Of a DNA stretch of 64,000 nt, positions 15,502 through 45,094 are shown in pieces. Below the pieces are notes generated by a model. That model was not told the origin of the DNA. It made no database searches and saw nothing but the letters and a program-made list of their open reading frames with translations. Position numbers and translations under genes: made by a program. Source of the stretch: an uncultured bacterium (GTDB taxonomy: Bacteria > Patescibacteriota > Minisyncoccia > Phycocordibacterales > DATDWN01); NCBI GenBank assembly GCA_903861205.1, contig CAIOTC010000020.1, positions 39,976 through 103,975 on the forward strand. Reading direction: 5' to 3'. The first letter of the stretch is position 1, and each line of letters opens with the position of its first letter.

Positions 15502-15520
15502 GACACCGGGTGTCAACGAA
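15502..15520. repeat. palindromic repeat family copy gacaccgggtgtcaacgaa (intergenic), followed by aggagggct as in the uvrC copy
   Basis: Shares about 31 nt with 24838-24868 (ggacaccgggtgtcaacgaaWaggagggctWa). Confidence 0.75.
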
Positions 15521-15541
15521 TAGGAGGGCTTAGTTGAGCCA

Positions 15542-17430: not shown

Positions 17431-17487
17431 TTAGTAGATAGCATTTAGGAATAAATAGGAAAAATTATTATTAATTATTACAAAAAT

Positions 17488-17766: not shown

Positions 17767-17789
17767 GCGGGTGTGGATAAGTGATTGCA

Positions 17790-18131: not shown

Positions 18132-18229
18132 AAAAATTTATTGTGGAAAACTGCTTGCGTAAAAAATTACTACATGATATCTTAATGAAGAAGTTGTTCA
18201 TTTTTGTTGAGGAGGAATTTCTCTTGAAG

Positions 18230-18440
18230 CATTCTTCTCATCAGCGGCGGGCCAGGGATAAGGATATTCTGCCCTAGCTTCCGGCTAGGGCGAGCGATAG
18301 AAGCGAGGGAAAGTCGGCAATGAGCCGAAACCTCAAGACTGACATCGCGTCAAACACCGGCGGTGGGGGCATGGCAAAGCGCGAAACTTGCCCCCACAAA
18401 CCATTTCACAACGCGAGCTACGGCTCGTGTTTTTCTTTTT
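18230..18440 (+). ncRNA. candidate structured noncoding RNA 2 (family unassigned), ending in a terminator just upstream of the uvrB promoter
   Basis: Hairpins ccctagc-ttccg-gctaggg and gtgggggca-...-tgcccccac, and a gagggaaagtcggc motif weakly reminiscent of the RNase P P4 strand. Terminator cgagc-tacg-gctcg followed by tgtttttcttttt at 18411-18440. Confidence 0.25.
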
Positions 18441-18445
18441 CAATC

Positions 18446-18459
18446 TACGCTATAGCGTA
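18446..18459. promoter_or_regulatory. perfect 14-nt palindrome TACGCTATAGCGTA upstream of uvrB; its half-site TAGCGTA recurs overlapping the uvrB ATG
   Basis: Palindrome seen directly. Third half-site at 18499-18505. Candidate operator of a DNA-repair gene. Confidence 0.35.
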
Positions 18460-18505
18460 AATCATAAATTTTTATTTTTCATATTTATGTTGTATTGTGT
18501 AGCGT

Positions 18506-24313: not shown

Positions 24314-25660
24314 ATGAATAGTCAAGCCATCAAAAAGAAAATAGCCAGGTTGCCGGATGCGCCTGGGGTGTATCAATTTTTGCGAGGGAAAAAGATTCTT
24401 TACATCGGTAAAGCGACATCTCTGCGCGATAGGGTGCGGAGCTATTTTGCCGGGGATATTGAAGTCACTCGCGGACCGCTAATTTCTAAAATGCTTGGGC
24501 GATTCGACGATATCAAATTTCAGAAAACTGATTCCGTTTTGGAAGCACTGATTTTGGAAGCGAATCTCATCAAAAAATATCAGCCGGAGGCCAACACAAT
24601 GGAAAAGGACGACAAAAGTTTTAATTTTGTTGTGATTACCGACGAGAATTTCCCGCGTGTTCTCGTTGTCCGCGGCAGGGAATTAGAAACATCGAGTGTC
24701 GGCGGCGAAGCAACGCAGTCACTTGGTGTTGGGAAATTATTGTATTCCTTCGGTCCCTTCACCAACGGCAGACAACTCAAGGAGGCAATGAAAATCGTCC
24801 GCAAACTTTTTCCATACCGCGATAGGTGTCAACCTGTGGACACCGGGTGTCAACGAAAAGGAGGGCTAAAAATAAGGCCATGTTTCAATCGCCAGCTCGG
24901 ATTGTGTCCGGGGGTTTGCACGGGAGAAATTAGCAAAAAAGATTATGCAAAAACGATAAAGAACATCAGGTTATTTTTTGAAGGTAATAAAAAACAAATC
25001 GTTAAAAATTTGGAAAAAGAAATGAAAATTTTGGCCAAAAATCGCGAGTTTGAAAAAGCCGGAAAAATAAAAAATAAAATATTCGCTTTGAATCATATCC
25101 GCGATGTGGCGCTGATTAAAAATGCGGATTCCCAAGGTCTGGCCTTTAATGCCCAATTCCCCAAGGACAGACCTTTGAATGCAGGGTTCAGAATTGAATC
25201 CTACGACGTTGCGCACATGTCAGGGCAAAATGTTGTCGGGGTGATGACGGTGGTGGAAAACGGCGAGACCAAAAAATCAGATTACAGAAAATTTAAAATT
25301 CGAGAAAATCCGGGAGTGAATGACACCAAAGCATTGGCGGAAATTTTGACGAGACGACTCGGGCACATCGAGTGGTCTTTGCCGAATCTGATCGTCGTTG
25401 ATGGGGGAGTGGCACAGAGAAATGTTGCAGAGAAAGTGCTGAAAGAAAACGGCGCGCAAATTCCCGTTGTGTCGGTTGTGAAAGACGATCATCACCGACC
25501 AAAACAAATTCTCGGTGACCCCGGTAGCAGAGCAAAGCTCGCTACGGGGCAGGCCGGCGGTTGGAATGAAATTGAGAGGCAGATTTTATTGGCTAACTCT
25601 GAAGCGCATCGCTTCGCCCTATCTTTTCATAAGCAATTAAGAAGTAAAAATTACCACTGA
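24314..25660 (+). CDS. uvrC: excinuclease ABC subunit C, short form (GIY-YIG plus RNase H-like endonuclease, no C-terminal HhH domain)
   Basis: GIY-YIG motif VYQFLRG...ILYIGKA...R, UvrB-interacting region and endonuclease motif ESYDVAHMSGQNVVGV. 448 aa against about 600 for typical UvrC. Contains two different repeat elements. Confidence 0.8.
   Translation: MNSQAIKKKIARLPDAPGVYQFLRGKKILYIGKATSLRDRVRSYFAGDIEVTRGPLISKMLGRFDDIKFQKTDSVLEALILEANLIKKYQPEANTMEKDDKSFNFVVITDENFPRVLVVRGRELETSSVGGEATQSLGVGKLLYSFGPFTNGRQLKEAMKIVRKLFPYRDRCQPVDTGCQRKGGLKIRPCFNRQLGLCPGVCTGEISKKDYAKTIKNIRLFFEGNKKQIVKNLEKEMKILAKNREFEKAGKIKNKIFALNHIRDVALIKNADSQGLAFNAQFPKDRPLNAGFRIESYDVAHMSGQNVVGVMTVVENGETKKSDYRKFKIRENPGVNDTKALAEILTRRLGHIEWSLPNLIVVDGGVAQRNVAEKVLKENGAQIPVVSVVKDDHHRPKQILGDPGSRAKLATGQAGGWNEIERQILLANSEAHRFALSFHKQLRSKNYH
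24825..24872. repeat. palindromic repeat family copy inside uvrC (ggtgtcaacctgtggacaccgggtgtcaacgaaaaggagggctaaaaa; encodes VDTGCQRKGG)
   Basis: 31-nt match to the intergenic copy at 15501-15531. Confidence 0.75.
25131..25184. repeat. about 54-nt palindromic repeat element, copy 2, in frame inside uvrC (encodes SQGLAFNAQFPKDRPLNA)
   Basis: About 88% identical to the intergenic copy at 1122-1175. Confidence 0.7.
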
Positions 25661-29591: not shown

Positions 29592-30918
29592 GTGCGTTGG
29601 GCTACGCAATGTTGAGGATTTTGATATCCTCAACATTGCACACTTGAAACGATTCGAGTCTTTCTCTCCACAAAGTAAAATTCTCTACTTTGCGGTGTAT
29701 GAAGATGATCCCGAAAAATTTGGCTGGTATAACAAACCATTTGACCGGACGCTAAATATACAAAAACTGGGCGTTTACGAGAATTTTGTTTTTGTGGTTG
29801 ACGACAGAATTTCTGACGAACAACTTATCGGCATTCGCTACATTCGCGTGGATAATATCTATCACGCGATAGAGAGAATTTGTCGACATGTTGTTTTGCA
29901 AGTTAATCCACAAGTAATTGGGGTGACTGGCAGTGTCGGAAAAACTACTGGCACAGCACTCATTCAGGGTGTATTGGATAAAAAATTCAGTTGTGGAAGA
30001 ATTTACTCAAAACGTCTGACTCCACTAACTTTATCCTCGTGGCTGGTCAATTTTCTTGAGCCGGAGCACCAAGTCTTGACTTTGGAATACTCGATGTATC
30101 GAAAAAATCACATCGACATTTTGACTGACATATTGAGACCGGATATTAGCGTGTTTATGAACATCAAAAGAGTGCATCTTGGTGTGCAGGGAATAAATAC
30201 GCTGGACGATATTGTGGATGGCAAACGAGCTTTGGTCGACAAATCTCGTGTGGCTTTGCTTAATATCGATGATACTCGCATCTCTCGACTGAAAAGAAAA
30301 GGTGATTTTGGGTTTTCTCTGTCCAATCAGAGAGCGGACGCTTTTGTGTCAATTGCTGGCGATGAAGCAATGCTTGTTTTGAATTACACGAATCAAACCT
30401 TACGATTTGCGCCTTACATAAAAACGAGTTTGTTTTACTACCAGGCCGTTGTCGCCGGACTTCTTGGGGCGTATCTTGGAGTTCCAGCAGATTCAATTGC
30501 CGAGGCTCTGGGAAATTTTAGGCCGGCGGAAAACAGAATCAACTGGCTGGACATTTTCGGCCAACAGGTTTTGTTTGATGGCGATGTCACAACCAGCGGA
30601 CGAATGTCGTCTCTCTCCGAGCACCACTACTCAACCAGTCTGTTGATGATCCATAGTTTTGATTTTGGTGAGGAAAATGTCGACTTGCAAGTCGATGACT
30701 TCAACCAAGTTTTTTCAAAGTTTGACGAAGTTAGGGTTCTGGATACAGAGAAAAATAGAACTGTTGTTTCGAGACATTCTTTTAGAAATATCATTTTTAC
30801 ACAAAAGAATGACTTTCTTTCAGACCTCTCGAAATTTGAGTTCAAAGTTCTTCACTTCGCAATTTATTTTAGGAAACACAAAGATTTAAGTTTTCTAAAT
30901 GAGTTTATAGCCGCTTGA
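29545..30918 (+). CDS. Mur ligase family protein (MurF-like paralogue outside the dcw cluster)
   Basis: P-loop VIGVTGSVGKTT and a Mur ligase central domain. AAGGAGG is 6 nt upstream of the ATG at 29545. Overlaps the preceding gene by 47 nt. Confidence 0.55.
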   Translation: MKLSPQTFLQIIQDAKCVGLRNVEDFDILNIAHLKRFESFSPQSKILYFAVYEDDPEKFGWYNKPFDRTLNIQKLGVYENFVFVVDDRISDEQLIGIRYIRVDNIYHAIERICRHVVLQVNPQVIGVTGSVGKTTGTALIQGVLDKKFSCGRIYSKRLTPLTLSSWLVNFLEPEHQVLTLEYSMYRKNHIDILTDILRPDISVFMNIKRVHLGVQGINTLDDIVDGKRALVDKSRVALLNIDDTRISRLKRKGDFGFSLSNQRADAFVSIAGDEAMLVLNYTNQTLRFAPYIKTSLFYYQAVVAGLLGAYLGVPADSIAEALGNFRPAENRINWLDIFGQQVLFDGDVTTSGRMSSLSEHHYSTSLLMIHSFDFGEENVDLQVDDFNQVFSKFDEVRVLDTEKNRTVVSRHSFRNIIFTQKNDFLSDLSKFEFKVLHFAIYFRKHKDLSFLNEFIAA

Positions 30919-30956
30919 GTAATATCGAGTGGTTATTTTTTATGAAAATAATAACT

Positions 30957-31028
30957 TAAAAAACTTATGCACAAAAATTGTCCAGTCGGTATTGCTTTGA
31001 CTTTCCGCAAAGTTGTATAATTAAAGTG
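30957..31028 (+). promoter_or_regulatory. conserved promoter cassette A: aaaaaacttatgcacaaaaattgt ... tttccgcaaagttgTATAATtaaagt
   Basis: About 80% identical over about 70 nt to cassette B at 36538-36609. Contains the palindromic ACAAAAATTGT and an extended -10. Confidence 0.6.
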
Positions 31029-31063: not shown

Positions 31064-31666
31064 ATGGAAAACAATCTTGAAAATGTCGGGCAAACAACTC
31101 AAGCCGTTCCGAAAACAAACGGCGCCAAAAAAAGTTTGCTTGTCGCGCTGATTATTATCGTGGTCGCGTTGGCTCTGGCCGGCGGCTGGTATTATTGGAC
31201 GAGCAAAGCCAAGATGGCCAAGTCGACGCAGGTTGCCCTTCAATTGGCCGTGAACACTCCGGCCCGGACGAATATCACGCTTGCTTCTCTGGTGGGGGAG
31301 TCGAAAGTTGTTTTTCCGGATGTCGCGAAGCTTTTGCCCGTTGACCCGAAAAAAATGTCGAAAGAAAATAACGATTTGATTTTGCCGAACGCCGCGCAAA
31401 TCAGCATGAAAAATCTTTCATATGTCGACTCTCAAACAGGATTTTTTATAACATATCAAATCGCCAGCTCATCCGTTAAAGATTTTATGTCGTCGATCTC
31501 GCGTTTCGGCCAGGGAAAATGGCAGGTGACGGGCGGTTACTCTTCCAACTTCGCTGCCGTTCTCGATTTGCAAAACACCGTCTCCGGCGCGCTCGGCCAA
31601 GTCAAATATATTTTGTCCGGAACCGTAGGGCAGGTTGCCGTCAAAACCTTGGATAAAGTGAAATAA
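31064..31666 (+). CDS. membrane-anchored hypothetical protein (200 aa)
   Basis: Single N-terminal TM helix (LLVALIIIVVALALAGGWYYW). Precedes the 776-aa secreted protein. Confidence 0.5.
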   Translation: MENNLENVGQTTQAVPKTNGAKKSLLVALIIIVVALALAGGWYYWTSKAKMAKSTQVALQLAVNTPARTNITLASLVGESKVVFPDVAKLLPVDPKKMSKENNDLILPNAAQISMKNLSYVDSQTGFFITYQIASSSVKDFMSSISRFGQGKWQVTGGYSSNFAAVLDLQNTVSGALGQVKYILSGTVGQVAVKTLDKVK

Positions 31667-31700
31667 TGATATTTTAAGCCGTCTTTTTGCGGTTTTAGTG

Positions 31701-31747
31701 TTGACTTGCGTTGCAAGATGTTTCCATTGTATAATAAAGTCAGGAGG
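31701..31747 (+). promoter_or_regulatory. promoter of the 776-aa secreted protein gene (tttccattgTGTATAATaaagt plus AGGAGG), same TTTCC..TGTATAAT..AAAGT type as cassettes A and B
   Basis: Sequence similarity to 31002-31028 and 36582-36609. Confidence 0.5.
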
Positions 31748-31755
31748 TTTTCGCC

Positions 31756-34086
31756 ATGCAGACGAAGACGGTTTTTCGGTTCTTTGTCATTGCGTTTTTT
31801 GCGTTTGCCGCCTTGCCCTTGTTTGGGCAGGTGGTGTACGAAGAAATTCAGATGCCAGTCAACTCCCTTGTGGGAAGCGTTGGAGTGGATGACTCGAATA
31901 ACTTCTGGATGTCGGGTGTTCAAAGCTTGAATGGTTCCGGATCCGGCAGATTGATTTTCGAGTTGGATCCAACCAAAACCATGGCTTCTTTTCTGGGATT
32001 TGCCGACGGGTACAATTCAAGGAAGCAAGCTGGGGCGACATACGTTTTCTACAATTCTTTTCCGCCCAAAGGGCCTCAAAATTTGTTCGGACAGAATGTG
32101 GATTCTTTGTCGCTTGTAACAACTCCGACCAGCTGGGTGTACGTTGGCCATTACATGGTGAACGTGTACCAAGCGGTTAACGGAGGCGTGAATCTTGTCT
32201 GTTCGGATTACACAATAGACGGAAATCCGAACCAGAAACCCACAGATCTTGTTGCCGGACCGTTCTCGAATACGGACGGGAGTTATTTTCTGTCTGGATT
32301 TGTGAATGCAACTCCGAAACTTTTCCAGCTCGGGGCACAAGGATCCGGCGGGCAATGCGATCTCAAAACCGTTCTGACGAGCGATCACCAGATCATCCAG
32401 GCCTACAGGCTTGGAACGGACATTTTGGTTGAAGAGTTGGCAACACCGACTCCAAACTCGCTCAATCTTCTGACGGAAATCGCGGTTTCCGCCAAAGGCG
32501 GTCCGCTGACCGTTTTGCTCGGACCCGTAGGGGACAACAATCCGCAGATCTTGACCGGCAGGAGCTCTGTTGACCTTTCGGTCGATCAGAAAACCAAAAC
32601 GGCCGTGATCACATATGCCGACAACACTGGCTTACACGCCATGTTGTGGCCTTCAATGCGCGAGTTTTACTCCAGCGCAAACGATCAGTCGGCGACCAAA
32701 CTGGCAACCGAGATTCGGGGGGTGTATTTTAATCCTCCATACATGATTCTCGGTGGCAACCCTGTCAATATAGGATTCCAGAGTAGCAAGGTTATTTTGG
32801 CGAACACCGATACTGGTGCAACATACCCTGTAATTGACAGCTCGACGGTGATTGACGGACTCAATGCCAAACTGTTTCCGTACAGCGTTTTTGCAGTCAC
32901 ATCAACCGGTTTTGTGGATTTTGTTGTGTATAATTCAAATTATCCAACTGATCCACATATACACACCTTTCGAGCCCAGATCCCTGGTGTCTCCCAATTC
33001 CCACCGACGACAGTCAGCAGCTTCACCGCCGACAACCTGTCGGTCACGGAAGGCGACGCTGTCACACTCGCTTGGAACACGACAAATGCCAACTCGGTCT
33101 CGATCGACAACGGCGTCGGCTCGGTTTCTGTTTCGGGGACGGCGCAAGTTGTTGTCAGCGGGACGACCACGTTCACTTTGACGGCTACTGGCTATGGCGG
33201 ATCTGCCACGGCCACGGTGACTGTCACGGCAACGCCGCGCAAACCGGCCATCAGCAAATTCTCTCTTTCCACGGGCGAAGCAACATCAACCGTGGCCCAG
33301 GGCAGCGTGCTGAGTGTGCTCGGAACGAACATGTGTGGACTGGTGACGGACATCACGTACGAAGTCGAGATCATTGCCACCATCCGACCATTGCCGTACT
33401 CAATCGGCGGTTGCCGGATGAGAATCACCGACGCAAGTGGCAACACCAGCTACCTGCCGATGAAATTCGGCATCACCTTCGCCACATCCACTCCGCCGCA
33501 TCAGTCGCAATCCAACGGGCAGATTCCGTGGAGTCAGACTCCCGGTGTTTACCAGTTGGTTGTCGAAAATCGCAATTGGGCCACCGACGCCTACGTGAGC
33601 GAGACGGATCCCGTTTCGATCACTGTGGTTCCGGTCAACCCTTCGCTCAACCGCGCAAATGACGGCACGAGCGATCCGCCGCTTGACATGACCGACGGAT
33701 CCGGCGCATCTGTCACGCCGAAAAATCCCGCCCAGCCCGGCGGAATGTTCCTTGCAAAGGGAACCGGCTTCGGCCAACCGACTGTGCCTCTTCCCGCCGG
33801 TATGGCGCCAGCAGATATTCACCTCTCCGACTGGGACAACATCCAGTCGCCGGCTGAAATCTGGGCGTATGTTTCGGAGGGCGGCAACTGGAACATGCAC
33901 CAACTGCCGATTCAACTCGCGGTCATGGACCCGAGCGACATCGGCACGCAGATTGTTGTGTTCGCCGTTCCGGACGATGTTAATCCGGACGCCGGCCAGC
34001 AAAACGCTTTCATGTTTTTCAAAATGGCAGACGGGACGACAACCCCGATCAAAGGGTTCCCGCTGTCGCCAAAGGTGGTGAAATGA
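31756..34086 (+). CDS. large secreted protein (776 aa), Gly/Thr/Ser-rich beta-domain protein with an Ig-like domain
   Basis: Signal peptide MQTKTVFRFFVIAFFAFAALPLFGQVV. Ig-like segment PTTVSSFTADNLSVTEGDAVTLAWNTTNANSVSID...TATGYGG. Confidence 0.7.
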   Translation: MQTKTVFRFFVIAFFAFAALPLFGQVVYEEIQMPVNSLVGSVGVDDSNNFWMSGVQSLNGSGSGRLIFELDPTKTMASFLGFADGYNSRKQAGATYVFYNSFPPKGPQNLFGQNVDSLSLVTTPTSWVYVGHYMVNVYQAVNGGVNLVCSDYTIDGNPNQKPTDLVAGPFSNTDGSYFLSGFVNATPKLFQLGAQGSGGQCDLKTVLTSDHQIIQAYRLGTDILVEELATPTPNSLNLLTEIAVSAKGGPLTVLLGPVGDNNPQILTGRSSVDLSVDQKTKTAVITYADNTGLHAMLWPSMREFYSSANDQSATKLATEIRGVYFNPPYMILGGNPVNIGFQSSKVILANTDTGATYPVIDSSTVIDGLNAKLFPYSVFAVTSTGFVDFVVYNSNYPTDPHIHTFRAQIPGVSQFPPTTVSSFTADNLSVTEGDAVTLAWNTTNANSVSIDNGVGSVSVSGTAQVVVSGTTTFTLTATGYGGSATATVTVTATPRKPAISKFSLSTGEATSTVAQGSVLSVLGTNMCGLVTDITYEVEIIATIRPLPYSIGGCRMRITDASGNTSYLPMKFGITFATSTPPHQSQSNGQIPWSQTPGVYQLVVENRNWATDAYVSETDPVSITVVPVNPSLNRANDGTSDPPLDMTDGSGASVTPKNPAQPGGMFLAKGTGFGQPTVPLPAGMAPADIHLSDWDNIQSPAEIWAYVSEGGNWNMHQLPIQLAVMDPSDIGTQIVVFAVPDDVNPDAGQQNAFMFFKMADGTTTPIKGFPLSPKVVK

Positions 34087-34225: not shown

Positions 34226-34885
34226 TTATTTTGAATTTATATATTTAACGAATTCTTTTTCCATTATTTCTATATTACTGCCAAATATTTTTTCAAAATT
34301 TTTGCTGAAATTGTCATAGAAGTAGTTTTTTTCCAAGGTAAATATGAGTTCACGAACTTTTTCAATGGAAAATTCTTTAACTAGAAAACTGACAAACATC
34401 TGAGAAATTTTGTAGGCGTAATAGTTTGAGTTTTCATCCCAACACCTCGGAGTTCCAAGTTTCTTTAAAAATTTTTCCTCAATATATATATATTCATCAG
34501 AAATATTGAATCCAGCGACAAAAGAAGAAAATCCTTCATTTAGCCACTTTGGTATTTTATGTCCACCAGAAAGAATATCTAAGAATACGTGTGAGATTTC
34601 GTGTTTTAATATCGAAAGGAATTCATTTTTTTCGTGAGTGCTTTCTTTTGCCATGCAGTCTGGATGCAAAATATCGATATCACCTGAATAAGATGCATTT
34701 GCAACTTCCCATTCAAGAGTTATTCTTTTTAATTTGTTCTCGAAATCCTTTCTTGATTTATGCACAGTAATGTTTATACTTTCTGGTTTTTTATCAAAAA
34801 ATTTCTCCGCTTCTTGATAAGCAGTAGATGCCATTTTTTCTATTTCATTATAATCTTTACCTTTGTAGACTATATTTATTTTCAT
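34226..34885 (-). CDS. HExxH zinc metallopeptidase (gluzincin-like: HEISH...NEGFSSF), candidate leader peptidase of the adjacent RiPP-like cluster
   Basis: 219 aa with HEISHVF and a downstream NEG glutamate ligand. Very AT-rich. Lies 65 nt downstream of the precursor-peptide gene on the same strand. Confidence 0.6.
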   Translation of the reverse strand: MKINIVYKGKDYNEIEKMASTAYQEAEKFFDKKPESINITVHKSRKDFENKLKRITLEWEVANASYSGDIDILHPDCMAKESTHEKNEFLSILKHEISHVFLDILSGGHKIPKWLNEGFSSFVAGFNISDEYIYIEEKFLKKLGTPRCWDENSNYYAYKISQMFVSFLVKEFSIEKVRELIFTLEKNYFYDNFSKNFEKIFGSNIEIMEKEFVKYINSK

Positions 34886-34902
34886 AAAATTAAATTATCG
34901 CT

Positions 34903-34942
34903 AAAAAATAAGGCGAGAGAGTCTAGCTAGAACCCTCTCGCC
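34903..34942 (-). terminator. terminator/attenuator hairpin between the precursor-peptide gene and the metallopeptidase gene (minus strand)
   Basis: On the minus strand: ggcgagaggg-ttctagctagac-tctctcgcc followed by ttatttttt. Confidence 0.55.
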
Positions 34943-34949
34943 TCGTCGG

Positions 34950-35102
34950 CTACTTGTTGCACTTGTTGTCACATGATTGGCAGTTGACGCACTGGCAACT
35001 GCCGCCGGAAGTGAGTCCGATCGAGTTGACAAGCTCGGCAGACTGCTGAGAGCGGTTGATAACCTCGGCAGAGTTCACAAAAAACTTCTTTGTGTTTTGC
35101 AC
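34950..35102 (-). CDS. RiPP precursor peptide, 50 aa: MQNTKKFFVNSAEVINRSQQSAELVNSIGLTSGG|SCQCVNCQSCDNKCNK (double-Gly leader plus Cys-rich core; SCIFF/ranthipeptide-like)
   Basis: Not in the ORF track because it is under 60 aa. GTG start 8 nt after AAAGGAGGA. Lies 18 nt downstream of the radical-SAM gene stop. A terminator hairpin follows the stop. Five Cys in the last 16 residues after a Gly-Gly. Confidence 0.55.
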   Translation of the reverse strand: MQNTKKFFVNSAEVINRSQQSAELVNSIGLTSGGSCQCVNCQSCDNKCNK

Positions 35103-35120
35103 GGATACTATCCTCCTTTC

Positions 35121-36428
35121 CTATTTAAGGATAACTCCGCTGTTAAAAAGTGTCAATACGACCTCAATAATATCACTGGCGTCTAAACCAGTTTCCTCTG
35201 TAATTTCAGCTGAGGAAAAGGTTCTTTTTTGGACCATAAGACGAACAAGTTGAAAACCATCGTGCGTCAAAAATTGGACACTAGTTCCAACATAGGCGAT
35301 TCCGCCAAAACTTTCCTCTCGCAATCTGGTGAGGGAATTTATTTCAACGCGTTCTTCCAACAAGATTTTTCCAAATTGTTTTTTCCGATTGGGCAACTTC
35401 GCCACTCTTTTTGGGTTGAATATGGGCAAAGACATGTACATATCTTTACCATTATAACTACCGTTTGTTGTTTTTGATGACATACGACAACCACCTTCGC
35501 ATATTGTCGTAGCTGAACAATTTATACACTCTGTCGGAAGCATTGATTCCTCCGACCACGGACTCATATTTGTCCAAATGGCGGAAAAATCTTCTTGAAA
35601 AACGTTACCGAATGATTTGTCGGCATGTATGCATGGCCTGACCATTCCAGTTGAGGAAATGGCGCATGATGTTGTGGCCGCGGAACATATTCTGTTGCCA
35701 AAAAAGGATAAAAAATCATCCTCATCGTTTTCATTAAATAAGCATCTGGCTATGGGTTCCAGCGTGTCGACGCTTATTCTGAAAGTTTGTTCTACCAAAA
35801 GAAGATTTCTCAGCGCAGATTTGCATTCTTCACCACTCAAAACAAAAGGTAAGTTTGACTCATGCGATGGAACCATTGGGGTTGCACAGAAAGTTTTTAC
35901 TCCTAGATTGTTAACAAGTTTGCCTACCTCAAACACTTCACTAAGGTTGAGCTTGGAAACGACCATATTTGTAGCTACCAATATACCCGCTTTAACCAAT
36001 TTTTCTATTCCTTTTAATGTTTGCGGGAATCCACTTTTAGTTCCTGTTATGAAATTGTGCGTTTCTTCTTTCCCGAGTATAGAACATAGAACATGATCAA
36101 GACCTTCATCTTTTAGTTGCTGAGCGGCGTCCGAAGTGACTAAGGACGCGTTGGTGTTTAGCCCAATTTCCATCCCATATTCTTTGGCTTTTCTGAGTGT
36201 CGGAAACAACACACCTGGTCTCAAAAGCGGTTCGCCGCCAGTGAGGGTAATGGCACTAACGCCATATTTTGCCAGAGTATCAATAACTCTCAAAAAATCT
36301 GTGGAGTTCAATTCTTGTTTGTCGCTTTTTGTGTCGTACCTCCAGTAGTTGTAACAATGTCTACATCTAAAATTACAACTCTCGGTCAATTCAAGTTGAA
36401 CATCGACAGGACCGGATAAGCGTTTCAT
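35121..36428 (-). CDS. radical SAM/SPASM-domain peptide-modifying enzyme with a C-terminal PqqD-like (RRE-like) extension
   Basis: CNFRCRHC (Cx3Cx2C), GGEPLL, Cys-rich SPASM region (CSAATTSCAISSTGMVRPC, CINCSATTICEGGC) and a C-terminal tail ...ITEETGLDASDIIEVVLTLFNSGVIL. Confidence 0.85.
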   Translation of the reverse strand: MKRLSGPVDVQLELTESCNFRCRHCYNYWRYDTKSDKQELNSTDFLRVIDTLAKYGVSAITLTGGEPLLRPGVLFPTLRKAKEYGMEIGLNTNASLVTSDAAQQLKDEGLDHVLCSILGKEETHNFITGTKSGFPQTLKGIEKLVKAGILVATNMVVSKLNLSEVFEVGKLVNNLGVKTFCATPMVPSHESNLPFVLSGEECKSALRNLLLVEQTFRISVDTLEPIARCLFNENDEDDFLSFFGNRICSAATTSCAISSTGMVRPCIHADKSFGNVFQEDFSAIWTNMSPWSEESMLPTECINCSATTICEGGCRMSSKTTNGSYNGKDMYMSLPIFNPKRVAKLPNRKKQFGKILLEERVEINSLTRLREESFGGIAYVGTSVQFLTHDGFQLVRLMVQKRTFSSAEITEETGLDASDIIEVVLTLFNSGVILK

Positions 36429-36537: not shown

Positions 36538-36609
36538 GAAAAAACTTATGCACAAAAGTTGTGTGGCGGCTATTGCCACACATTTCCGCAACGTAGTATA
36601 ATTAAAGTT
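36538..36609 (+). promoter_or_regulatory. conserved promoter cassette B: aaaaacttatgcacaaaagttgt ... tttccgcaacgtagTATAATtaaagtt, 7 nt before the ATG
   Basis: About 80% identical to cassette A. The -10 lies 7 nt from the start codon at 36610, implying a leaderless transcript. Confidence 0.6.
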
Positions 36610-38997
36610 ATGGACAGATCATTAAAAGTTTACGCGAAATGTTTTTTTGTTTTTACTTTGCTGTTTGTTGTTTCTTTCGGTTTGTTTGGCCAAGTCGCGC
36701 ATGCTCAGCTTCTCAACCCGCAACCGCCGTCTTGGACTTGGCCACCGTGTTCAACATGGAGTGGAACGAATGGCGGGTCATGCAATTATCCCTATCCTGG
36801 CAGTGGTTGTCAAGGATCCGTCTCCACAGTTTATTGTCCGATTTGTGACAGTTACCAGGGGTACACCAACGATTGTCCTAATCCGGGTGGAAATCTTTGC
36901 AATGACGGATCTGGCGGTGCAAACATATGCCAAAAAGATGGTGGCGGTTGCGGATGCGTCAAAACGTGGTCCGGCAACCAGTGCACTGATCCGGACGACG
37001 CTTGCTACGGCGAAGCCACTTGTTGCAACGGCTCATCTTGCAACAACAATGGCATCTGCGATGCCAACGAAACCACCTCTTCCTGCCCGCAGGGCTGCCA
37101 AGTCGGCCCGCAATTCAGATTTGACGTGAACAACTCACAAACTATAAATTATGGGGGCACCGCCGCTTACCAAATCCACGTCTACAATGATTCCAGCAAA
37201 AATAGTTTGAATTACAACATAACCTATTCCGGTCTGCCTTCATCCGCTTCCATCAGCTGGGGCTGGAGCGGGCAGAGCTACGCTTTGAGTTCGACGGACG
37301 GTGATAATTCCGACACAATCAGTTTGATGACCGTTGGCGGTCCGATCATGCCCGGCACGTACAACCTCACCATTACCGTTACCGGCACAACCAACGGCAT
37401 TTCAGTTCCGCAAACAAAATCTGCCGTTCTCATCGTCAGCCCCGCCAACTTCGCCCAGTGCAACGGTTTGTGGCACAACGCTCCGCTATCCGCCGCCTCG
37501 CCGGTACAGCCGGTCGGTTTGTACACTACTGTCAGTGGAAATCAAAACACCGTCAACTTGGTCTGGACCGGCACGGACAACGCCGTTTACCAACTTGGTT
37601 GCCGATTCTTCGGAGGCTCGTCATGCGCTTGGGACAGCTCAGTTTTCAAAATAGTTCCTAACGCCAACTATTCCGCTCCATTTTGGACAACGACTTCCGC
37701 TCCAAACATTTATCAAGACACCAGTTTCAAAGTGGCTTTTCTCAACTCAGGTGATGGCAAGAGATATTATAATTATATTTATTCGTCTTATGACGGCTTT
37801 TACGTCTGGCTGACACCGGACAATTCCGGCGCCACAGGCTACGGCACGCCAACGAACACCACCGACAGTCAAGGCAAACCGTGGAATTTTCAACGGCTCT
37901 CCGACAACACGGTGCAATACGAATGCGGCGTGCCTCTCACTCCAACCGGTTTCTGGGCCGGAGCCGGCACTTGCGGAACGGGACAAATCAATTTGTCGTG
38001 GAGCGCTTCGTACGGAGCAACAAGCTACACCGTGAAGGACGGAGCCAGGACGGTTTACAGCGGATCGGCTCTTGCCGTTTCCGACACCGGTCTTGTTGCG
38101 GGTTCCAATCACACCTACACGATCACCGCGACAGACGCTTCCGGCACTTCTGCTTCCGGTCCGACAACTCCGGCCACGACGGTCGCGCCAAGCTCATGCA
38201 CTCCGGTTCCGGTGACCACTTTCACCGCCTCGCCGACGTCCGGACCGGCGCCACTTTCCACAACGCTCTCATGGTCGGCCACGAACGGCGCCACTGGTTG
38301 CACGGCATCGTCCAATCCGGTCAACGCCAATTGGAACGGAGCAAAAACTCTGGCGCAATCACCGCAAACCATTTCCGGTTTGGCCGCCGGTTCCTACACA
38401 TTCAGTTTGTATTGCACGAACGCCACAGGTAATTCAACCACTGTTAGTCCCGTTGTCACGGTTGGTCCGGCGCTTCCGACGATCACGTCCTTTGTGGCAA
38501 ATCCACTGACCGGAACTTCGCCGCTATCCACGACTTTGACATGGGCATCATCGGGCGCCACAAGTTGTACCGCAAGCGGAGGATGGAGCGGTTCAAAAGC
38601 CACATCAAATGCAATCGGTGAAGTTGTGAGTGGATTAACTGTTCCAACAACTTTCAATCTGGTTTGCACAAATGCTTCTGGAAATAGTCCCCAATCTCAG
38701 GTTATAGTCACTCCTACAGCACCAAATTACACCCTAACTGTCAGCGTTACGACATCCCAGGGTGGTTATGTCACTGGTGCAGGAATAGATTGTGGTTCAT
38801 CAGGACACCCAACATGCACAGCGACATATCCTCAAGGTACTCCTGTCATTTTGACTCCAACACCTGTCGGCAACTGGAAATTCATCGGCTGGACAGGAGC
38901 GTGTACCGGCTCGGGCGCTTGCTCATTCAATGTGAACAGCAACTTGTCAGTTACCGCGCTATTTGTCCCGCGACCGATTAATTACCAGGAGTTCTAG
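36610..38997 (+). CDS. secreted Cys-rich protein with five tandem Fn3/Ig-like repeats and a C-terminal InlB B-repeat-like domain (795 aa)
   Basis: Signal peptide MDRSLKVYAKCFFVFTLLFVVSFGLFGQVAHA. About 25 Cys in the first 130 mature residues. About 90-aa repeats (..SPTSGPAPLSTTLSWSATNGATGCTAS.. / ..NPLTGTSPLSTTLTWASSGATSCTAS..). C-terminal GYVTGAGIDCG...GNWKFIGWTGACTGSGACSFNV. Start chosen at 36610 rather than the track start 36559. Confidence 0.7.
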   Translation: MDRSLKVYAKCFFVFTLLFVVSFGLFGQVAHAQLLNPQPPSWTWPPCSTWSGTNGGSCNYPYPGSGCQGSVSTVYCPICDSYQGYTNDCPNPGGNLCNDGSGGANICQKDGGGCGCVKTWSGNQCTDPDDACYGEATCCNGSSCNNNGICDANETTSSCPQGCQVGPQFRFDVNNSQTINYGGTAAYQIHVYNDSSKNSLNYNITYSGLPSSASISWGWSGQSYALSSTDGDNSDTISLMTVGGPIMPGTYNLTITVTGTTNGISVPQTKSAVLIVSPANFAQCNGLWHNAPLSAASPVQPVGLYTTVSGNQNTVNLVWTGTDNAVYQLGCRFFGGSSCAWDSSVFKIVPNANYSAPFWTTTSAPNIYQDTSFKVAFLNSGDGKRYYNYIYSSYDGFYVWLTPDNSGATGYGTPTNTTDSQGKPWNFQRLSDNTVQYECGVPLTPTGFWAGAGTCGTGQINLSWSASYGATSYTVKDGARTVYSGSALAVSDTGLVAGSNHTYTITATDASGTSASGPTTPATTVAPSSCTPVPVTTFTASPTSGPAPLSTTLSWSATNGATGCTASSNPVNANWNGAKTLAQSPQTISGLAAGSYTFSLYCTNATGNSTTVSPVVTVGPALPTITSFVANPLTGTSPLSTTLTWASSGATSCTASGGWSGSKATSNAIGEVVSGLTVPTTFNLVCTNASGNSPQSQVIVTPTAPNYTLTVSVTTSQGGYVTGAGIDCGSSGHPTCTATYPQGTPVILTPTPVGNWKFIGWTGACTGSGACSFNVNSNLSVTALFVPRPINYQEF

Positions 38998-39726: not shown

Positions 39727-39927
39727 CTCCTATATCATACCAGTAAACTTATAAAAATCCAATGTACCGTTGACTTTTTCTAAAAAATGATATAGCTTAT
39801 AATTAGATTCTACACCATAGGTACACACGAAAGTCTACTACCCATGTTGTTTCTGTTCTTTGAAAGAAACAGCGTGGAAAGTGGACTTGGTAGTGTATTG
39901 TATAGGTGAATCTCCAAAAGGAGTGGT

Positions 39928-41997
39928 ATGAAAACCATTCTAAATTTCACGGTAGTTTTTCTGCTTCTGGTTCTGTCCAGTGGCATACTCATCAACAACG
40001 CAAACGCTCAAACGGTTTGTCCGCAAGGAAAGTCCTGCGCTGTGTTCATTTGGGTCAACGGAATTGCAGTAAAAAATTCGGCTGATTGGGATACAACAGT
40101 CAACGACGTTAGAACCAAGTTTTTTAACGCTAATTCCGATATCGACCAAGCTTACATCAAGTTCGATCCTGCCTACAACCAAAGCTTCGGTATGTTAAAG
40201 GACATTTTCGGCCAGTCAATCTTCCAGTGGGACCAGCAGTTCACTGACAGTTTTCTGGCTAACTCTTCGGTCTTGCAAAATAGTTCGGTGAACAATATTT
40301 TGCTGGCATATGCTCTCTGGAACTATTCCTTTGACGCGAAGAGGTTCACAACAGATTTAATCGCGATTGGAGACAAAATTCATTCGTGGCAAAATCTCGG
40401 TTACCGAGTCGTCCTGGTTGGTCACAGTCAGGGTTCGTTTTTAACGAACGAAGCTTACACTGTCAGAATCAGAGAGGCAGTCGCCGACAAAAGCATTGCT
40501 CTGCCAGACGCAAACTTATTGTCAGTTGTAAATATTGCGAGTTCTGCCAATAATGTCGCTGATGGGCGGAACAAATACACCACCCAGTGCAATGACATTA
40601 TCCTGGTTGTTCCAAAAGTACTTCCGGGAAATGTGAACGACCCGACTGCTCCGTGCACTCCATTTTTGATGCCTCCACCCCCCGTCAGTATTTTGGCCGG
40701 AGTCCTTGATGCAATAGCTGCAACAGTGGATATAGCAAAGTTGTGGCACGGATATAACGTACACCAACTTTCGACCTACACGGCCGACAAATCTGCAACA
40801 CAAAAGCAAATCTTCGCGCATTTGGTTGACTCGCTTCCAGATCCGGGTTGTGCAGGTAACGAAAATTGTTATCTCCACGATACATACAGTCCAACCTTGA
40901 ACTACAAGGACAACTGGATTGTGACGAAAAAATCCGGTAACTCGCTTGAACCTTTGCGAGCTTCGGGGTGTTTGACTCTAAGTTCGCTCAGCGGTTTTCC
41001 AACTTTTCTCGACCCGGGGCAAATCACTCTCCGAACTCGCCGAGTTTTTACCGGTTTGTTTTGGGGATCCTTGCGATTTCGAAGTCGAGGAGCGGGAAAG
41101 TCTATCGTCAGTTTCAAAAAAGCGTCGGATGATTCTGTCGCGGCGTCTATTACAGCCGACAGCACTAAAGATTTTGGCGAAAACTGGAGGCAGATGTTCT
41201 TTGGTTGGAAAGACGATAACCTAACGATTTCGTCGTTAGGTCCTCTTCCTGTAAAAACTGCGTTCAATCAAGCAGAGGGTTACTATCTCGAGCTCGATTC
41301 TCAAGGTGACAACACGTTAGAGGTTAAAGATTTGGATGTGTCCAGAGTGAGGAACACGGAATTAAGCGATCCTACTTTGCCACCTCCGGCACCTTCTCCA
41401 CCTACTCCGTCTTCACCCTCACCCCCGCCTTCACCTCCTCCACCACCACCCGTACCTCTCACTGGTTCTTGCTCGCTAAACGGAGGACAAAATCCGGTTA
41501 CAATGCAAGTTAGTGGCACCGCGTATTTCAATGCTTCCTTCTCGGGCGGTACTGGTGCAATTCACTTTTCGTGGACTGGTGCTACTGGAGGTGATGCATC
41601 TAGTGCCTCGCAAGTTTACAACACTTCCGGAACATACACCGCTTCGGTCAAGTTGACCGACTCCGGTTCGCCGCAACAGCAAGTGATAGCAACATGCCCG
41701 CAGGTGACAGTGTCAAATCCCGCTCCACCGCCGCCAGTTGCCTTGTCCTACGTTTGCAGTATTTCACCGCCCACCATCAAATTGGGGTCGAGCGCGTCGT
41801 TTGCAGTTAGTGTTTATGGTGGCTATCCGCCATACACTTTCTACATGCCGGGCGCAGTGTTTTACCGAGCGCCGAACACCCAGATCTCAACCATTCCACC
41901 ACCACTTAGCGTCGGTGTGCAGACCTACTCGGGTTTTGTCCAGGATAGTCAAGGTAAAGTGACATATCCAACCTGCTCCGTCACGGTGACAAATTGA
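39928..41997 (+). CDS. secreted lipase-like alpha/beta hydrolase (GHSQGS) with a Pro-rich linker and a C-terminal beta domain; paralogue A
   Basis: Signal peptide MKTILNFTVVFLLLVLSSGIL. VVLVGHSQGS nucleophile elbow. PPPAPSPPTPSSPSPPPSPPPPPPVP linker. C-terminal domain homologous to that of 48009..50801. Confidence 0.7.
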   Translation: MKTILNFTVVFLLLVLSSGILINNANAQTVCPQGKSCAVFIWVNGIAVKNSADWDTTVNDVRTKFFNANSDIDQAYIKFDPAYNQSFGMLKDIFGQSIFQWDQQFTDSFLANSSVLQNSSVNNILLAYALWNYSFDAKRFTTDLIAIGDKIHSWQNLGYRVVLVGHSQGSFLTNEAYTVRIREAVADKSIALPDANLLSVVNIASSANNVADGRNKYTTQCNDIILVVPKVLPGNVNDPTAPCTPFLMPPPPVSILAGVLDAIAATVDIAKLWHGYNVHQLSTYTADKSATQKQIFAHLVDSLPDPGCAGNENCYLHDTYSPTLNYKDNWIVTKKSGNSLEPLRASGCLTLSSLSGFPTFLDPGQITLRTRRVFTGLFWGSLRFRSRGAGKSIVSFKKASDDSVAASITADSTKDFGENWRQMFFGWKDDNLTISSLGPLPVKTAFNQAEGYYLELDSQGDNTLEVKDLDVSRVRNTELSDPTLPPPAPSPPTPSSPSPPPSPPPPPPVPLTGSCSLNGGQNPVTMQVSGTAYFNASFSGGTGAIHFSWTGATGGDASSASQVYNTSGTYTASVKLTDSGSPQQQVIATCPQVTVSNPAPPPPVALSYVCSISPPTIKLGSSASFAVSVYGGYPPYTFYMPGAVFYRAPNTQISTIPPPLSVGVQTYSGFVQDSQGKVTYPTCSVTVTN

Positions 41998-42106: not shown

Positions 42107-45094
42107 ATGAAGTTTTTTCGTCTCGCGATTTTGCCGGCGGTTTTGTTTTCATTTTTCGCTTTTTGCGGCACGGTTTTTGGTGATGTCGTGTATGAACAAC
42201 CGATCATTGGACAGGGGATTAACATCAAAGTTGCCGGCGATTATCACAAAAGTTTTTATATGTATTATGTTGGAGGTATTTCGGAACTTGCCAATCCGCC
42301 TGTCACCTCCGGTTTTATTGTACCTAGAGCATATAACAAAGTCAGAATAAAAAAGATGTTAGGAACATCATGCTCTAATATAACTGCCGGCACCAATCTC
42401 GACAGTTTTAACTACGGCCACGAGGTGGGTGAGGACTACTGCGAGTTTTATATCTATGATGGTGTCGGAAACGCCGGTCAAACTAATTATTTATATTTTT
42501 TTGGCAACGGCCAGGATTTGGTTTTTGATGGCAGTAGCGCCAACGCTGGAGTAACAGTCGACGGATATAATGATCACAGCATTCCGGGCGGTTACGCTTT
42601 CCAATTTTGCGAAAGCGTGTGCGACAGAGATTTTATTCTCGGTCCGGTCACCGATCCGGCAAATTATCCGACCAGAATTTTTGCTTTTGACGTATCAACT
42701 AGCACGAAAACAGCTTCGGTGCACGAATATCTAAATCCGAACGATCTCGGCGCGAAAATAAATTTTAACATCACCGATTCGGCCGGACAATTTTTCACTT
42801 CAAGTGTGACAGCAACCACGACCGGCGAATTTTATTACACCTGGAACTTTCCGGAATTTCCGGAAAACAAAACCGGTTTTGACGATTACACTTTTTACAC
42901 TGACATCGCCACTTCGACGGTCATAAAAAGCAAAAGCGTCAAAATGCATCTCGAAGTACCGATTATCGGCCGACCGGGTTACGGCAATTCAGGCTTCGAT
43001 TCTTCTCAACAGATCGGTAGCTCATTCAATCATTTGATTCAAACACTCGGCACAAATCTTTTCGGAAGTTTAAAGCGCATTGATATACAATCAAGCAATC
43101 CAAGTGCTATTTATTATGGTTCGCAAACTTGGTTTTCTTTGTACGAGTGCGATGATGACGCATACGGAAAATTCTTTTTTGACGGTTCAAATTGTAAATT
43201 TGTAAATCAGTTTATCTCTGACACGATGGGGAAGCTTGATAAAAGTGTTGAGAGTTTTTATCCTGATCTAACCAATCCGGTTATTTTGAATCCGACTAAA
43301 TATTACTATTTTGTCGTGCAAGGGAATAATCAGTTCAATTCTTTGCCTATTTACTACGGAAGCTCGGCGGACAATGTGGACGGCGCCTGCTACCAATATT
43401 CTCTCGGGCAAGAAGCCAAAGTCACTCCCTGCGCTACGGTTGCCGATTTGTATTTCCGTCTGTATGGAATAACCAAAGCACCACCCACACCGACAATTGA
43501 TCCAGTCATCATCATTCCGGGTATTATGGGAAGCGCTTATAAGAACGGCAAACTTATTATTGATCCGATTTTGCATACGTACGACGACCTGATTGATACT
43601 TTGAAAGCGAATGGATACGAAGAAGGCAAAGATCTTTTCACTTTTGCGTACGAATGGCGGAACTCAAACGTTGAAAGCGCCAATTTACTGAAAGATAAAA
43701 TCAGCGAGGTGAAGGAAATTTGCAAATGTTCGAAAGTCGATTTGGTCGCGCACTCGATGGGCGGGTTGGTGGCTCGCGAATATATTCAGTCCGGCCAATA
43801 CAGGCATGATGTTGACCAAGTTATCTTTTTGGGAACGCCACATAAGGGGTCGCCGTCTGATTATTTGAGATGGGAAGCAGGGGAGTTTGAATCAGGCACT
43901 TTTAACATTTTAACAAAGAAATTTTTCCAAGTAGAAGCGTTGGAACATTTCTATACAAGCTTGTTCGATTACATTCAAAAATATCCAATAGCGTCAGTCC
44001 AAAATCTGTTACCGGTTTTTGATTATTTGAAAGATAAAAATACCGGAGTTTTGAGAACATATCCAAACAATTATCCAAAAAATGTTTTTCTGGAAGCGTT
44101 GGATCTCAATACCGGTTTGCAAAAACTTCTGAATTCAGGAGTGAGAATCACAAACATTGTTGGTAATGCTGGAGCAACATCAACAATAGAAAAAATAAGA
44201 GTGACAGCAAGCTCGAGCCCACTTTGGTTGGATGGCAAGCCGGATGGATTTGACGGACAAACGGCTGACAGGGGATTGGAAATGGGTGCCGGAGATGGAA
44301 CGGTCACGATAAATGGCGCAACTTTGGACAGTTTGGTTGCAAATCAGGTAGTATCCGGTGAGCACCAAAAACTTCCAACCATGGCTGAGGCAAAAATTTA
44401 TAATATTCTGACAGGTAAAACGGCTCAAACGACTTTTGATCGCGATCATGGGGTTGATGTGAAGGTTTTGCTTTTGCAACTGCTTTCGCCGGTAGATTTT
44501 GTTATTACGGATCCGAATGGCCGAAGAATTGGCAAAAATTTTGCCACAGGCGAGGAATACAATGAAATCCCCGGAGCGTTTTACTCAGGGTATCAGACAG
44601 CCGAAGAATATATTTCAATTCCAAATCCTTTGGACGGAGATTATAAAATACAGTTGCAGGGAACGGGAAGCGGAAAATACACAGTTGATACAAGTTATGT
44701 GGGCGACACAACTTCCAACACCGCGGAAATTGTAGGCACAACAGTTCCGAATCAAATAAATAATCTTGATTTGACATTGAACAACGTTCACCCAGAATCT
44801 ATTTCTGTTGACCCGGATATAATTAGCGATATAAACAAATGTTTTGATTCGGGATGGATAAAAGATAAAAAAATAAAGGACGCATTGATAAAGGAAGTGC
44901 AATTTATTGTAAAATTTGAGAAAAAATTTGATATAATAAAACAGAAGAAGGTGGAAAAAATTGAAAAGAAAATAGACAAAATATTGGCAAAATTGGTAAA
45001 GATAGAATTGGATGGACTGTTAAAGAAAAAAATCATAAACCAACAAGCTTACAATTTATTAAAAAGCGATCTAGATTGGTTAATTAACAATTAA
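42107..45094 (+). CDS. large secreted PGAP1/LCAT-like alpha/beta hydrolase (HSMGG) with a C-terminal PPC-like domain and a Lys-rich coiled-coil tail (995 aa)
   Basis: Signal peptide ...FCGTVFGDVVYEQ. Motifs PGIMGS, LVAHSMGGLVAREY, GTPHKGSP. C-terminal ITDPNGRRIG...GDYKIQLQG. K-rich tail. Confidence 0.7.
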   Translation: MKFFRLAILPAVLFSFFAFCGTVFGDVVYEQPIIGQGINIKVAGDYHKSFYMYYVGGISELANPPVTSGFIVPRAYNKVRIKKMLGTSCSNITAGTNLDSFNYGHEVGEDYCEFYIYDGVGNAGQTNYLYFFGNGQDLVFDGSSANAGVTVDGYNDHSIPGGYAFQFCESVCDRDFILGPVTDPANYPTRIFAFDVSTSTKTASVHEYLNPNDLGAKINFNITDSAGQFFTSSVTATTTGEFYYTWNFPEFPENKTGFDDYTFYTDIATSTVIKSKSVKMHLEVPIIGRPGYGNSGFDSSQQIGSSFNHLIQTLGTNLFGSLKRIDIQSSNPSAIYYGSQTWFSLYECDDDAYGKFFFDGSNCKFVNQFISDTMGKLDKSVESFYPDLTNPVILNPTKYYYFVVQGNNQFNSLPIYYGSSADNVDGACYQYSLGQEAKVTPCATVADLYFRLYGITKAPPTPTIDPVIIIPGIMGSAYKNGKLIIDPILHTYDDLIDTLKANGYEEGKDLFTFAYEWRNSNVESANLLKDKISEVKEICKCSKVDLVAHSMGGLVAREYIQSGQYRHDVDQVIFLGTPHKGSPSDYLRWEAGEFESGTFNILTKKFFQVEALEHFYTSLFDYIQKYPIASVQNLLPVFDYLKDKNTGVLRTYPNNYPKNVFLEALDLNTGLQKLLNSGVRITNIVGNAGATSTIEKIRVTASSSPLWLDGKPDGFDGQTADRGLEMGAGDGTVTINGATLDSLVANQVVSGEHQKLPTMAEAKIYNILTGKTAQTTFDRDHGVDVKVLLLQLLSPVDFVITDPNGRRIGKNFATGEEYNEIPGAFYSGYQTAEEYISIPNPLDGDYKIQLQGTGSGKYTVDTSYVGDTTSNTAEIVGTTVPNQINNLDLTLNNVHPESISVDPDIISDINKCFDSGWIKDKKIKDALIKEVQFIVKFEKKFDIIKQKKVEKIEKKIDKILAKLVKIELDGLLKKKIINQQAYNLLKSDLDWLINN

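Follow-up and report, generated by a model that had tools for sequence, protein, structure and literature searches.

A duplicated promoter unit with a putatively constrained upstream element in a patescibacterial genome

Described promoters and surface-protein gene families

Among described systems, sigma-70 promoters with an upstream site or UP element (E. coli rrnB P1 and the class I CRP promoters) combine the -35 and -10 hexamers and a spacer of 17-18 nt with a region further upstream that is contacted by the alpha-CTD or by an activator. DnaA also acts as a transcription factor, in E. coli at dnaA, nrdAB, and uvrB and in B. subtilis at dnaA, sda, and the yydA cluster, and the promoters that it regulates usually carry several boxes. 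Leaderless mRNA promoters are common in Actinobacteria, Deinococcus, and archaea. At the level of gene families, YSIRK/GXXS is a short and widespread motif in the n/h region of the signal peptides of otherwise unrelated Gram-positive surface proteins, with a demonstrated role in sorting, and the vlp and vsa genes of Mycoplasma form variable surface-protein families with shared 5' expression modules. To our knowledge, experimental work on the promoters and gene regulation of the Patescibacteria is almost entirely lacking, and we found no transcription-start or promoter study of this group in the literature.

Here, we describe a promoter-like unit of 70 nt that occurs twice in a 64,000-nt stretch of DNA from an uncultured patescibacterium (hereafter the window, to which all coordinates refer unless a contig is named). 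Like the sigma-70 promoters above, both copies (A and B) have hexamers and a spacer of this length, and a conserved A/T-rich block at about -70 to -47 (block I) lies where the alpha-CTD or an activator makes contact in rrnB P1 and the class I CRP promoters; unlike in UP-element promoters, however, block I has no close match to the UP consensus. The unit resembles DnaA-box promoters in that a perfect TTATNCACA 9-mer, a candidate site by its sequence, lies 5' of the core in both copies, and differs from them in having one box per copy and surface or secreted proteins as targets. With respect to leaderless promoters, copy B is alike (7 nt between the -10 box and the start codon, no Shine-Dalgarno sequence), whereas copy A, with 42 nt, is not. 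The motif FG(Q/D)VV in the signal peptides of three nearby proteins recalls YSIRK/GXXS in that it is short and shared by otherwise unrelated proteins, but it is located at the predicted cleavage site and is known from these three proteins of one genome. Shared promoter and signal-peptide segments, differing mature parts, and a rearrangement at a module boundary in one contig (L004) are reminiscent of vlp and vsa, although a repeat-tract phase switch and an invertase are both missing, and only two or three genes are concerned. We regard the cassette as a promoter that was duplicated together with an apparently constrained upstream element, in a phylum that has received little study; it represents no new mechanism. 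As an internally controlled example, in which the pattern of conservation marks which promoter bases matter, the pair could be of use for gene-start annotation, the design of expression tools, and metatranscriptome analysis in Patescibacteria.

The duplicated unit and its promoter elements

The two copies are identical at 55 of 70 positions (78.6%) in an ungapped alignment, with a blastn E of ~1e-13 to 3e-13 within the window, and lie 5.6 kb apart in direct orientation, 5' of two unrelated membrane or secreted protein genes (Table 1). Their similarity has abrupt edges, the 60 nt on each flank being unrelated, and searching both strands of the window with a two-copy profile, all filters off, did not reveal a third copy. 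The original prediction of a duplicated cassette of about 70 nt was borne out (two copies, window-level E of 2-3e-13), as was that of an upstream motif shared by the copies: the 18-mer CTTATGCACAAAARTTGT occurs exactly twice in the window, against 0.2 occurrences expected. Copy B is situated in a divergent intergenic region between a radical SAM gene (ATG at 36428, minus strand) and a gene for a Cys-rich protein (ATG at 36610).

Table 1. Coordinates of the duplicated unit, its putative elements, and the genes and signal-peptide motifs discussed in the text
Feature	Position	Strand	Remarks
Cassette A	30958..31027	+	first 70-nt copy of the promoter unit, spanning about -70 to -1 from the predicted start
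Cassette B	36539..36608	+	second 70-nt copy of the promoter unit
Block I of copy A, AAAAAACTTATGCACAAAAATTGT	30958..30981	+	candidate site for a regulator, or UP-type element
Block I of copy B, AAAAAACTTATGCACAAAAGTTGT	36539..36562	+	delimited by mismatch clustering
DnaA box of copy A, TTATGCACA (consensus TTATNCACA)	30965..30973	+	perfect match; candidate site
DnaA box of copy B, TTATGCACA	36546..36554	+	perfect match; candidate site
-35 element of copy A, TTGCTT	30992..30997	+	18-nt spacer to -10; read from the sequence
-35 element of copy B, TTGCCA	36573..36578	+	from a consensus scan
-10 box of copy A, TATAAT	31016..31021	+	preceded by TG (extended -10); ATG at 31064 lies 42 nt downstream
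-10 box of copy B, TATAAT	36597..36602	+	7 nt 5' of the ATG at 36610, no Shine-Dalgarno sequence
Inverted repeat TGTGTGGC-N7-GCCACACA	36560..36582	.	perfect, 8 bp; copy B only, across -35
Site C, TTTCC-AT-TGTATAAT-AAAGT	31721..31740	+	putative extended -10 promoter
200-aa protein, first gene after cassette A	31064..31666	+	one N-terminal membrane helix, no Pfam family
776-aa secreted orphan	31756..34086	+	homologues only for an Ig-like segment (~10% of its length)
795-aa secreted protein after cassette B	36610..38997	+	Cys-rich N-terminal region, Ig-like repeats
995-aa secreted LCAT/PGAP1-like lipase	42107..45094	+	own leaderless TACAAT promoter, no cassette
LFGQVVYEE	31819-31845	+	signal peptide of 31756
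LFGQVAHAQ	36682-36708	+	signal peptide of 36610
VFGDVVYEQ	42173-42199	+	signal peptide of 42107

Differences between the copies are distributed unevenly. Twelve of the 15 mismatches fall within the 22 nt that flank an invariant TATTGC (permutation p = 0.0004). Upstream of them lies block I (AAAAAACTTATGCACAAAARTTGT; 24 nt, about -70 to -47), which is identical at 23 of 24 positions, and downstream a core block of 26 nt, comprising the 3' part of the spacer, the -10 box, and the discriminator, which is identical at 24 of 26. Most of the differences are due to the perfect inverted repeat of copy B, which has no equivalent in copy A; as the hairpins of the two copies are moreover in different registers, this repeat is specific to copy B and is not a case of covariation. 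The duplication, its boundaries, and the mosaic are direct observations, and we take the mosaic to reflect constraint on both block I and the core promoter. This reading draws on the single A/B pair, since every other contig on which the local genes were found matches the window at 99.96-100% identity where the two overlap. A direct repeat of block I and block III within the cassette was also considered and was not significant, with 372 of 2,000 shuffles scoring equally.

The 3' part of each copy has the layout of a sigma-70 promoter. In copy B, TTGCCA-18-TATAAT agrees with the sigma-70 consensus at 11 of 12 positions and is the best match on its strand between 28 and 46 kb, and the core of copy A is TTGCTT-18-TGTATAAT. 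Both copies therefore have hexamers comparable to TTGACA and TATAAT at a spacing within the usual 16-18 nt. The TATAAT is preceded by TG in copy A and by AG in copy B, and the sequence reads TTTCC-N7-TG-TATAAT, not with the TTTCC-N8 spacing that had been given for it. Because the unit spans about -70 to -1 and ends at the predicted start, the downstream sequences are unrelated, and the genes after A and B have no 5' coding sequence in common. With a -35 element, an 18-nt spacer, a TATAAT, and an end at the predicted start, the designation as a promoter cassette is well supported by geometry. Promoters of the sigma-54 and ECF types were rejected on inspection of the sequence.

In copy B, the arrangement TATAAT-taaagtt-ATG without a Shine-Dalgarno sequence has the form of a leaderless start, in which the -10 box lies 6-8 nt before the AUG; copy A does not have this form, and its leader is A/T-rich, with the ATG 42 nt past the -10 box. 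Of the 42 long ORFs of the window that were checked, at least eight besides 36610 have TATAAT or TACAAT at a distance of 6-8 nt upstream of the start codon (ATGs at 16390, 24314, 25970, 42107, 52865, 54598, 57006, and 62707), and a Shine-Dalgarno match was present at only 5 of the 42. As far as sequence can tell, leaderless starts look like the norm in this organism, and the promoter of copy B is a typical one of this type. The geometry and its prevalence can be read directly from the DNA and lend strong indirect support to the cassette TATAAT as a working -10 box, from which we infer that the unit is transcriptionally active. A few further genes in the window have weaker -10-like boxes before their ATG.

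A third -10 box of the cassette type had been placed at 31721-31740 (site C). This site does contain TTGTATAAT and AAAGT as in copy A, and TATAAT-N0-1-AAAGT occurs three times in the window against 0.04 expected. However, its TTTCC lies 5 nt nearer to the -10 box than that of the cassettes, and no alignment is found further upstream; therefore, site C is at most a degraded relative of the 3' part of the cassette. It is located 20 nt 5' of the ATG at 31756 and is followed by the Shine-Dalgarno sequence AGGAGG.

Candidate binders and readings of the pair

We lean towards the reading, probable though far from certain, that the two copies represent a single housekeeping promoter unit of the sigma-70 type, placed 5' of two transcription units that are unrelated to each other, with block I as a likely factor site. 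The host belongs to the Patescibacteria (Paceibacteria-like) and would have mostly leaderless or Shine-Dalgarno-less mRNAs. In each copy, transcription is predicted to start about 7 nt downstream of the TATAAT. For copy B, this start would fall at or next to the A of the ATG at 36610, giving a leaderless mRNA for the 795-aa protein, and the mRNA from copy A would have a leader of ~36 nt, lack a Shine-Dalgarno sequence, and encode the 200-aa membrane-anchored protein. Since no convincing terminator was found between 31666 and 31756, the copy-A transcript probably reads on into the 776-aa gene, which itself may also be served by the site C promoter. The near-unchanged state of the blocks, while the surroundings of the -35 element were replaced, makes block I most likely a protein contact site, and from this we infer binding by a factor, putatively an activator, a repressor, or the alpha subunit of RNA polymerase (UP-type contact). 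Such a contact would give both units the same expression behaviour. The cassette is real and probably couples the expression of both genes, as a local curiosity and no new kind of system.

Several candidates for the binder of block I were compared. The small palindrome ACAA-N3-TTGT, proposed as an operator, turned out to be at chance level, its arms being no longer than 4 bp (copy A) and 5 bp (copy B). Sites like GCACAA-N3-TTGTGC, the broader form of this pattern, were found 35 times in the window against 35.7 expected. Long arms conserved in both copies, as a palindromic operator would have, are absent, the 8-bp repeat being confined to copy B. The DnaA box in each cassette was recognised post hoc. 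Its consensus TTATNCACA occurs seven times in the window against 2.4 expected, one of them in each cassette, so that each holds a single consensus box and no cluster of the kind found at DnaA-regulated promoters, and the sequence 3' of the box matches an inverted box at just 4-5 of 9 positions. DnaA is thus one nameable candidate for the binder of block I, judged unlikely on the sequence, and another regulator or a UP-type polymerase contact is at least as likely. Among the genes of the window, no regulator (transcription-factor) gene adjoins either cassette, and the sole signalling gene is that of a histidine kinase (54598-56181). A-tracts are located at about -70 to -65 and -55 to -50, with no close match by eye to the UP consensus AAAWWTWTTTTNNNAAANNN (-59 to -38).

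A more far-reaching version, which we regard as improbable, is that block I would be a true site for DnaA or another global regulator that links the expression of lineage-specific surface proteins to how far an episymbiotic patescibacterium has progressed in replication or in its cell cycle, with the radical SAM cluster included via the divergent promoter, and that FG-(Q/D)-VVYE would be a lineage-specific processing or sorting signal carried by a small set of surface proteins.

Searches beyond the window were directed at further copies. When genome contigs were scanned with ACTTATGCACAAAANTTGT (18 specified bases), at least 118 loci were matched, mostly in Comamonadaceae. The rest of the cassette was present in none of the matches listed (118 loci); as none of those listed has its other blocks, they are unrelated to the cassette. 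In the Comamonadaceae, ACTTATGCACAAAAYTTGTGCTGCGGTGC is conserved in an intergenic region across many genera (L010 and at least about 90 other loci, within L005-L122). The locus that was examined (L010, 1600-1940) is the region between hemE and priA, and a nearby TTATCCACA box together with an A/T-rich stretch makes the region look like a DnaA-box cluster or origin-type sequence. Some matches from other phyla are also found among DnaA-box-like sequences, and in a published oriC analysis of Yersinia, GTTATGCACAT repeats overlap predicted DnaA boxes; the DnaA 9-mer of the cassette is, by its letters, one that occurs among predicted DnaA boxes elsewhere. In a metagenome scan with TTATGCACAAAANTTGT-N28-42-TAWAAT, all 11 matches were chance ones that lacked the other blocks, and eight viral contig matches were to the pattern alone, without the cassette. 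No cassette was found in ~8 kb of sequence past the right-hand end of the window, nor at three loci of two related Patescibacteria genomes that were reached via homologues of the 42107 protein and that differ in synteny.

Strain variation bears on how the pair may have arisen. A contig from two samples (L004, ERZ27313067) agrees with the window at every position from 30936 to the end of the 776-aa gene, and its positions 1-147 are unrelated to window positions 30789-30935 and match nowhere else in the window. The alternative junction lies 22 nt upstream of cassette A; a module starting just before this cassette therefore has more than one set of genomic surroundings within the population. Two other contigs (L001 and L002) stop at the same position, 34827, within a peptidase gene, and a third ends near this position, as judged from its gene table. 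Together, the L004 junction and these contig ends suggest strain-level variation.

The pair could also be a neutral remnant, which we hold to be possible but doubtful. A promoter segment would have been copied by recombination or 5'-module shuffling among fast-evolving surface-protein genes, with no specific regulator; both copies would be plain promoters, and the patchiness would result from one local replacement that created the repeat of copy B. Shuffling of this sort is in keeping with the second 5' module duplicated nearby (39770-39992 and 50957-50737, 79%), with the signal peptides of 31756, 36610, and 42107, which are related when the mature proteins are not, and with L004, which attests recombination at a point 22 nt upstream of cassette A. 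In copy B, moreover, the variable segment is a perfect 8-bp inverted repeat and might have arisen in one event. Both arms of this repeat differ from copy A, however, so that the 12 clustered changes exceed a single templated event, and the combination of fully randomised flanks with 47 of 50 block positions kept fits selection better than recency.

It is very unlikely that the repeats are recombination sites or the ends of a mobile island flanking the 5.6-kb segment 30958-36538, which holds the 200-aa gene, the 776-aa gene, and the radical SAM peptide cluster. An island could account for the direct orientation of the repeats, the alternative junction near copy A in two samples, the contigs (L001, L002, and the third one) that end at or near 34827, and the atypical base composition of 32-42 kb, but no integrase, transposase, or recombinase is encoded between or beside the repeats, their identity is patchy and lacks a single exact core, and the contigs contain only the normal arrangement or the L004 variant, with no deletion or hybrid junction. 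Both copies, moreover, are at promoter distance from a start codon, and the composition is accounted for by Thr/Ser/Pro/Ala-rich proteins. A still smaller chance is given to the cassette encoding a 17-codon micro-ORF (MHKNCPVGIALTFRKVV in A and MHKSCVAAIATHFRNVV in B, starting at the ATG of CTTATGCAC and stopping at the TAA within GTATAAT) or else a small structured RNA. The frame is open and of equal length in both copies, but an open frame of 17 codons is not unusual in this DNA, it has neither a Shine-Dalgarno sequence nor a -10 box at leaderless distance, and the 15 differences, falling 3/6/6 on codon positions 1/2/3 with just two synonymous codon changes, give no coding signature. As for an RNA, copy B folds better than shuffled sequences (z = -2.1), but copy A does not (z = 0.02), no covariation is seen because the two hairpins differ in register, and Rfam gave no match, either at the gathering threshold or at E<=1.

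Signal peptides, a second 5' module, and neighbouring features

The motif FG(Q/D)V(V) at the end of three signal peptides is present as originally described and is non-random. In the six frames of the window, FG[QD]V has four matches, of which three are at these signal-peptide ends. As a background, 175 signal-peptide-like N-termini were taken from unrelated proteins, most of them of Patescibacteria. The signal peptide of 31756 is closer to those of 42107 and 36610 than to any background sequence, and the similarity of the 42107/36610 pair is not above the same background. The shared residues use different synonymous codons, so the motif is not a recent DNA copy, and the mature proteins of 31756, 36610, and 42107 are unrelated except for Ig-like repeats. 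None of the 119 listed homologues of 42107 has FG(Q/D)V, and their signal peptides mostly end in A-x-A. A profile of the three N-termini had no match among 5.8 billion proteins in a word-based search, a weak negative because short matches cannot reach E<=10 in it. The nearest relatives of the 42107 protein are annotated as Patescibacteria, Zambryskibacteria, Kaiserbacteria, and Paceibacterota.

By inspection, the three peptides conform to Sec export and signal peptidase I cleavage in having a basic n-region, a hydrophobic h-region, and small or aliphatic residues at -3 and -1, with L-F-G before Q and V-F-G before D; in 36610, cleavage may fall after A-H-A before Q or after L-F-G before Q. The motif accordingly has L or V at -3 and G at -1. 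A type IV pilin-like signal was considered for 31756 and 42107, which have G at -1 and E at +5, and was rejected since the only hydrophobic segment lies N-terminal to the G, which is the wrong side of the cleavage point. A lipoprotein signal ([LVI][ASTVI][GAS]C) was rejected as well, the only nearby Cys being that in FAFC of 42107, which does not fit. Of the suggestion that the proteins are exported or processed in a shared way, the common motif remains, whereas the peptides themselves are ordinary Sec peptides with a cleavage-type site of the form [LV]-F-G that is absent from the 119 listed homologues. The simplest reading of these sequences is that the 5' gene ends may share ancestry through the shuffling of promoter and signal-peptide modules, for which a special export route would be unnecessary.

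A co-regulated secretome module can be upheld only for the two units that have the cassette (31064-34086 and 36610-38997); others use different 5' modules. The gene at 42107 has its own leaderless promoter, TGgTACAAT. Two paralogous genes for secreted alpha/beta-hydrolase-like proteins, 39928-41997 (+) and 48009-50801 (-), have identical signal peptides and are preceded by a second duplicated 5' module, located at 39770-39992 (+) and 50957-50737 (-), which is 79% identical over 231 nt and covers promoter, leader, and signal peptide. Since nearby secreted-protein genes thus use different 5' modules, a secretome-wide or regional regulon is not supported. The leaders of the second module (~130 nt each) fold into a single long hairpin, with dG of -49.1 and -43.5 kcal/mol and z of -6.6 and -5.1, and 0 of 200 shuffles were equally stable. 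In this hairpin, the outer stem is conserved and the inner stem differs in sequence and is paired in both copies; a Shine-Dalgarno sequence follows directly 3' of it. The leader has no match in Rfam.

Divergent from the adjoining cassette B, a probable RiPP-like cluster occupies 34226-36428 on the minus strand. Its enzyme is a radical SAM/SPASM protein (35121-36428, minus strand), and a 50-codon ORF (35102..34950, minus strand) that encodes VQNTKKFFVNSAEVINRSQQSAELVNSIGLTSGGSCQCVNCQSCDNKCNK follows a strong Shine-Dalgarno sequence, AGGAAAGGAGG. Five Cys are found among the last 16 residues of the VQNTKKFFVNSAEVINRSQQSAELVNSIGLTSGGSCQCVNCQSCDNKCNK peptide. On the 3' side of this ORF are a strong terminator (34944-34910) and then a gene for an HExxH-type peptidase (34226-34885). 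Neither the radical SAM enzyme nor the 50-codon peptide matched an NCBIfam equivalog.

Between 32000 and 42000, the GC skew is locally reversed, GC rises to 0.55, and most genes are on the plus strand. This shift in composition at 32-42 kb is likely due to the Thr/Ser/Pro/Ala-rich secreted proteins and not a replication feature. The gene content of the window includes cell-wall and division genes, uvrABC, Ddl, and Mur ligases.

Two smaller repeats are also present in the window. A hairpin-forming repeat of 57 nt (AAGGTCTGGCCTT...AAGGCCAGACCTT) is found at 1119-1175 and 25128-25184 (91% identical), and one of 38 nt with the palindrome GGACACCGGGTGTC at 15493-15530 and 24830-24867 (89% identical). 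Each has one intergenic copy and one inside the uvrC frame (24314-25660), and they look like miniature insertions that are tolerated in frame. Between rmuC and uvrB (17431-18505), ~1 kb is without an ORF of at least 150 aa, which is unusually long for a compact genome, and this gap contains a perfect TTATCCACA box at 17772-17780.
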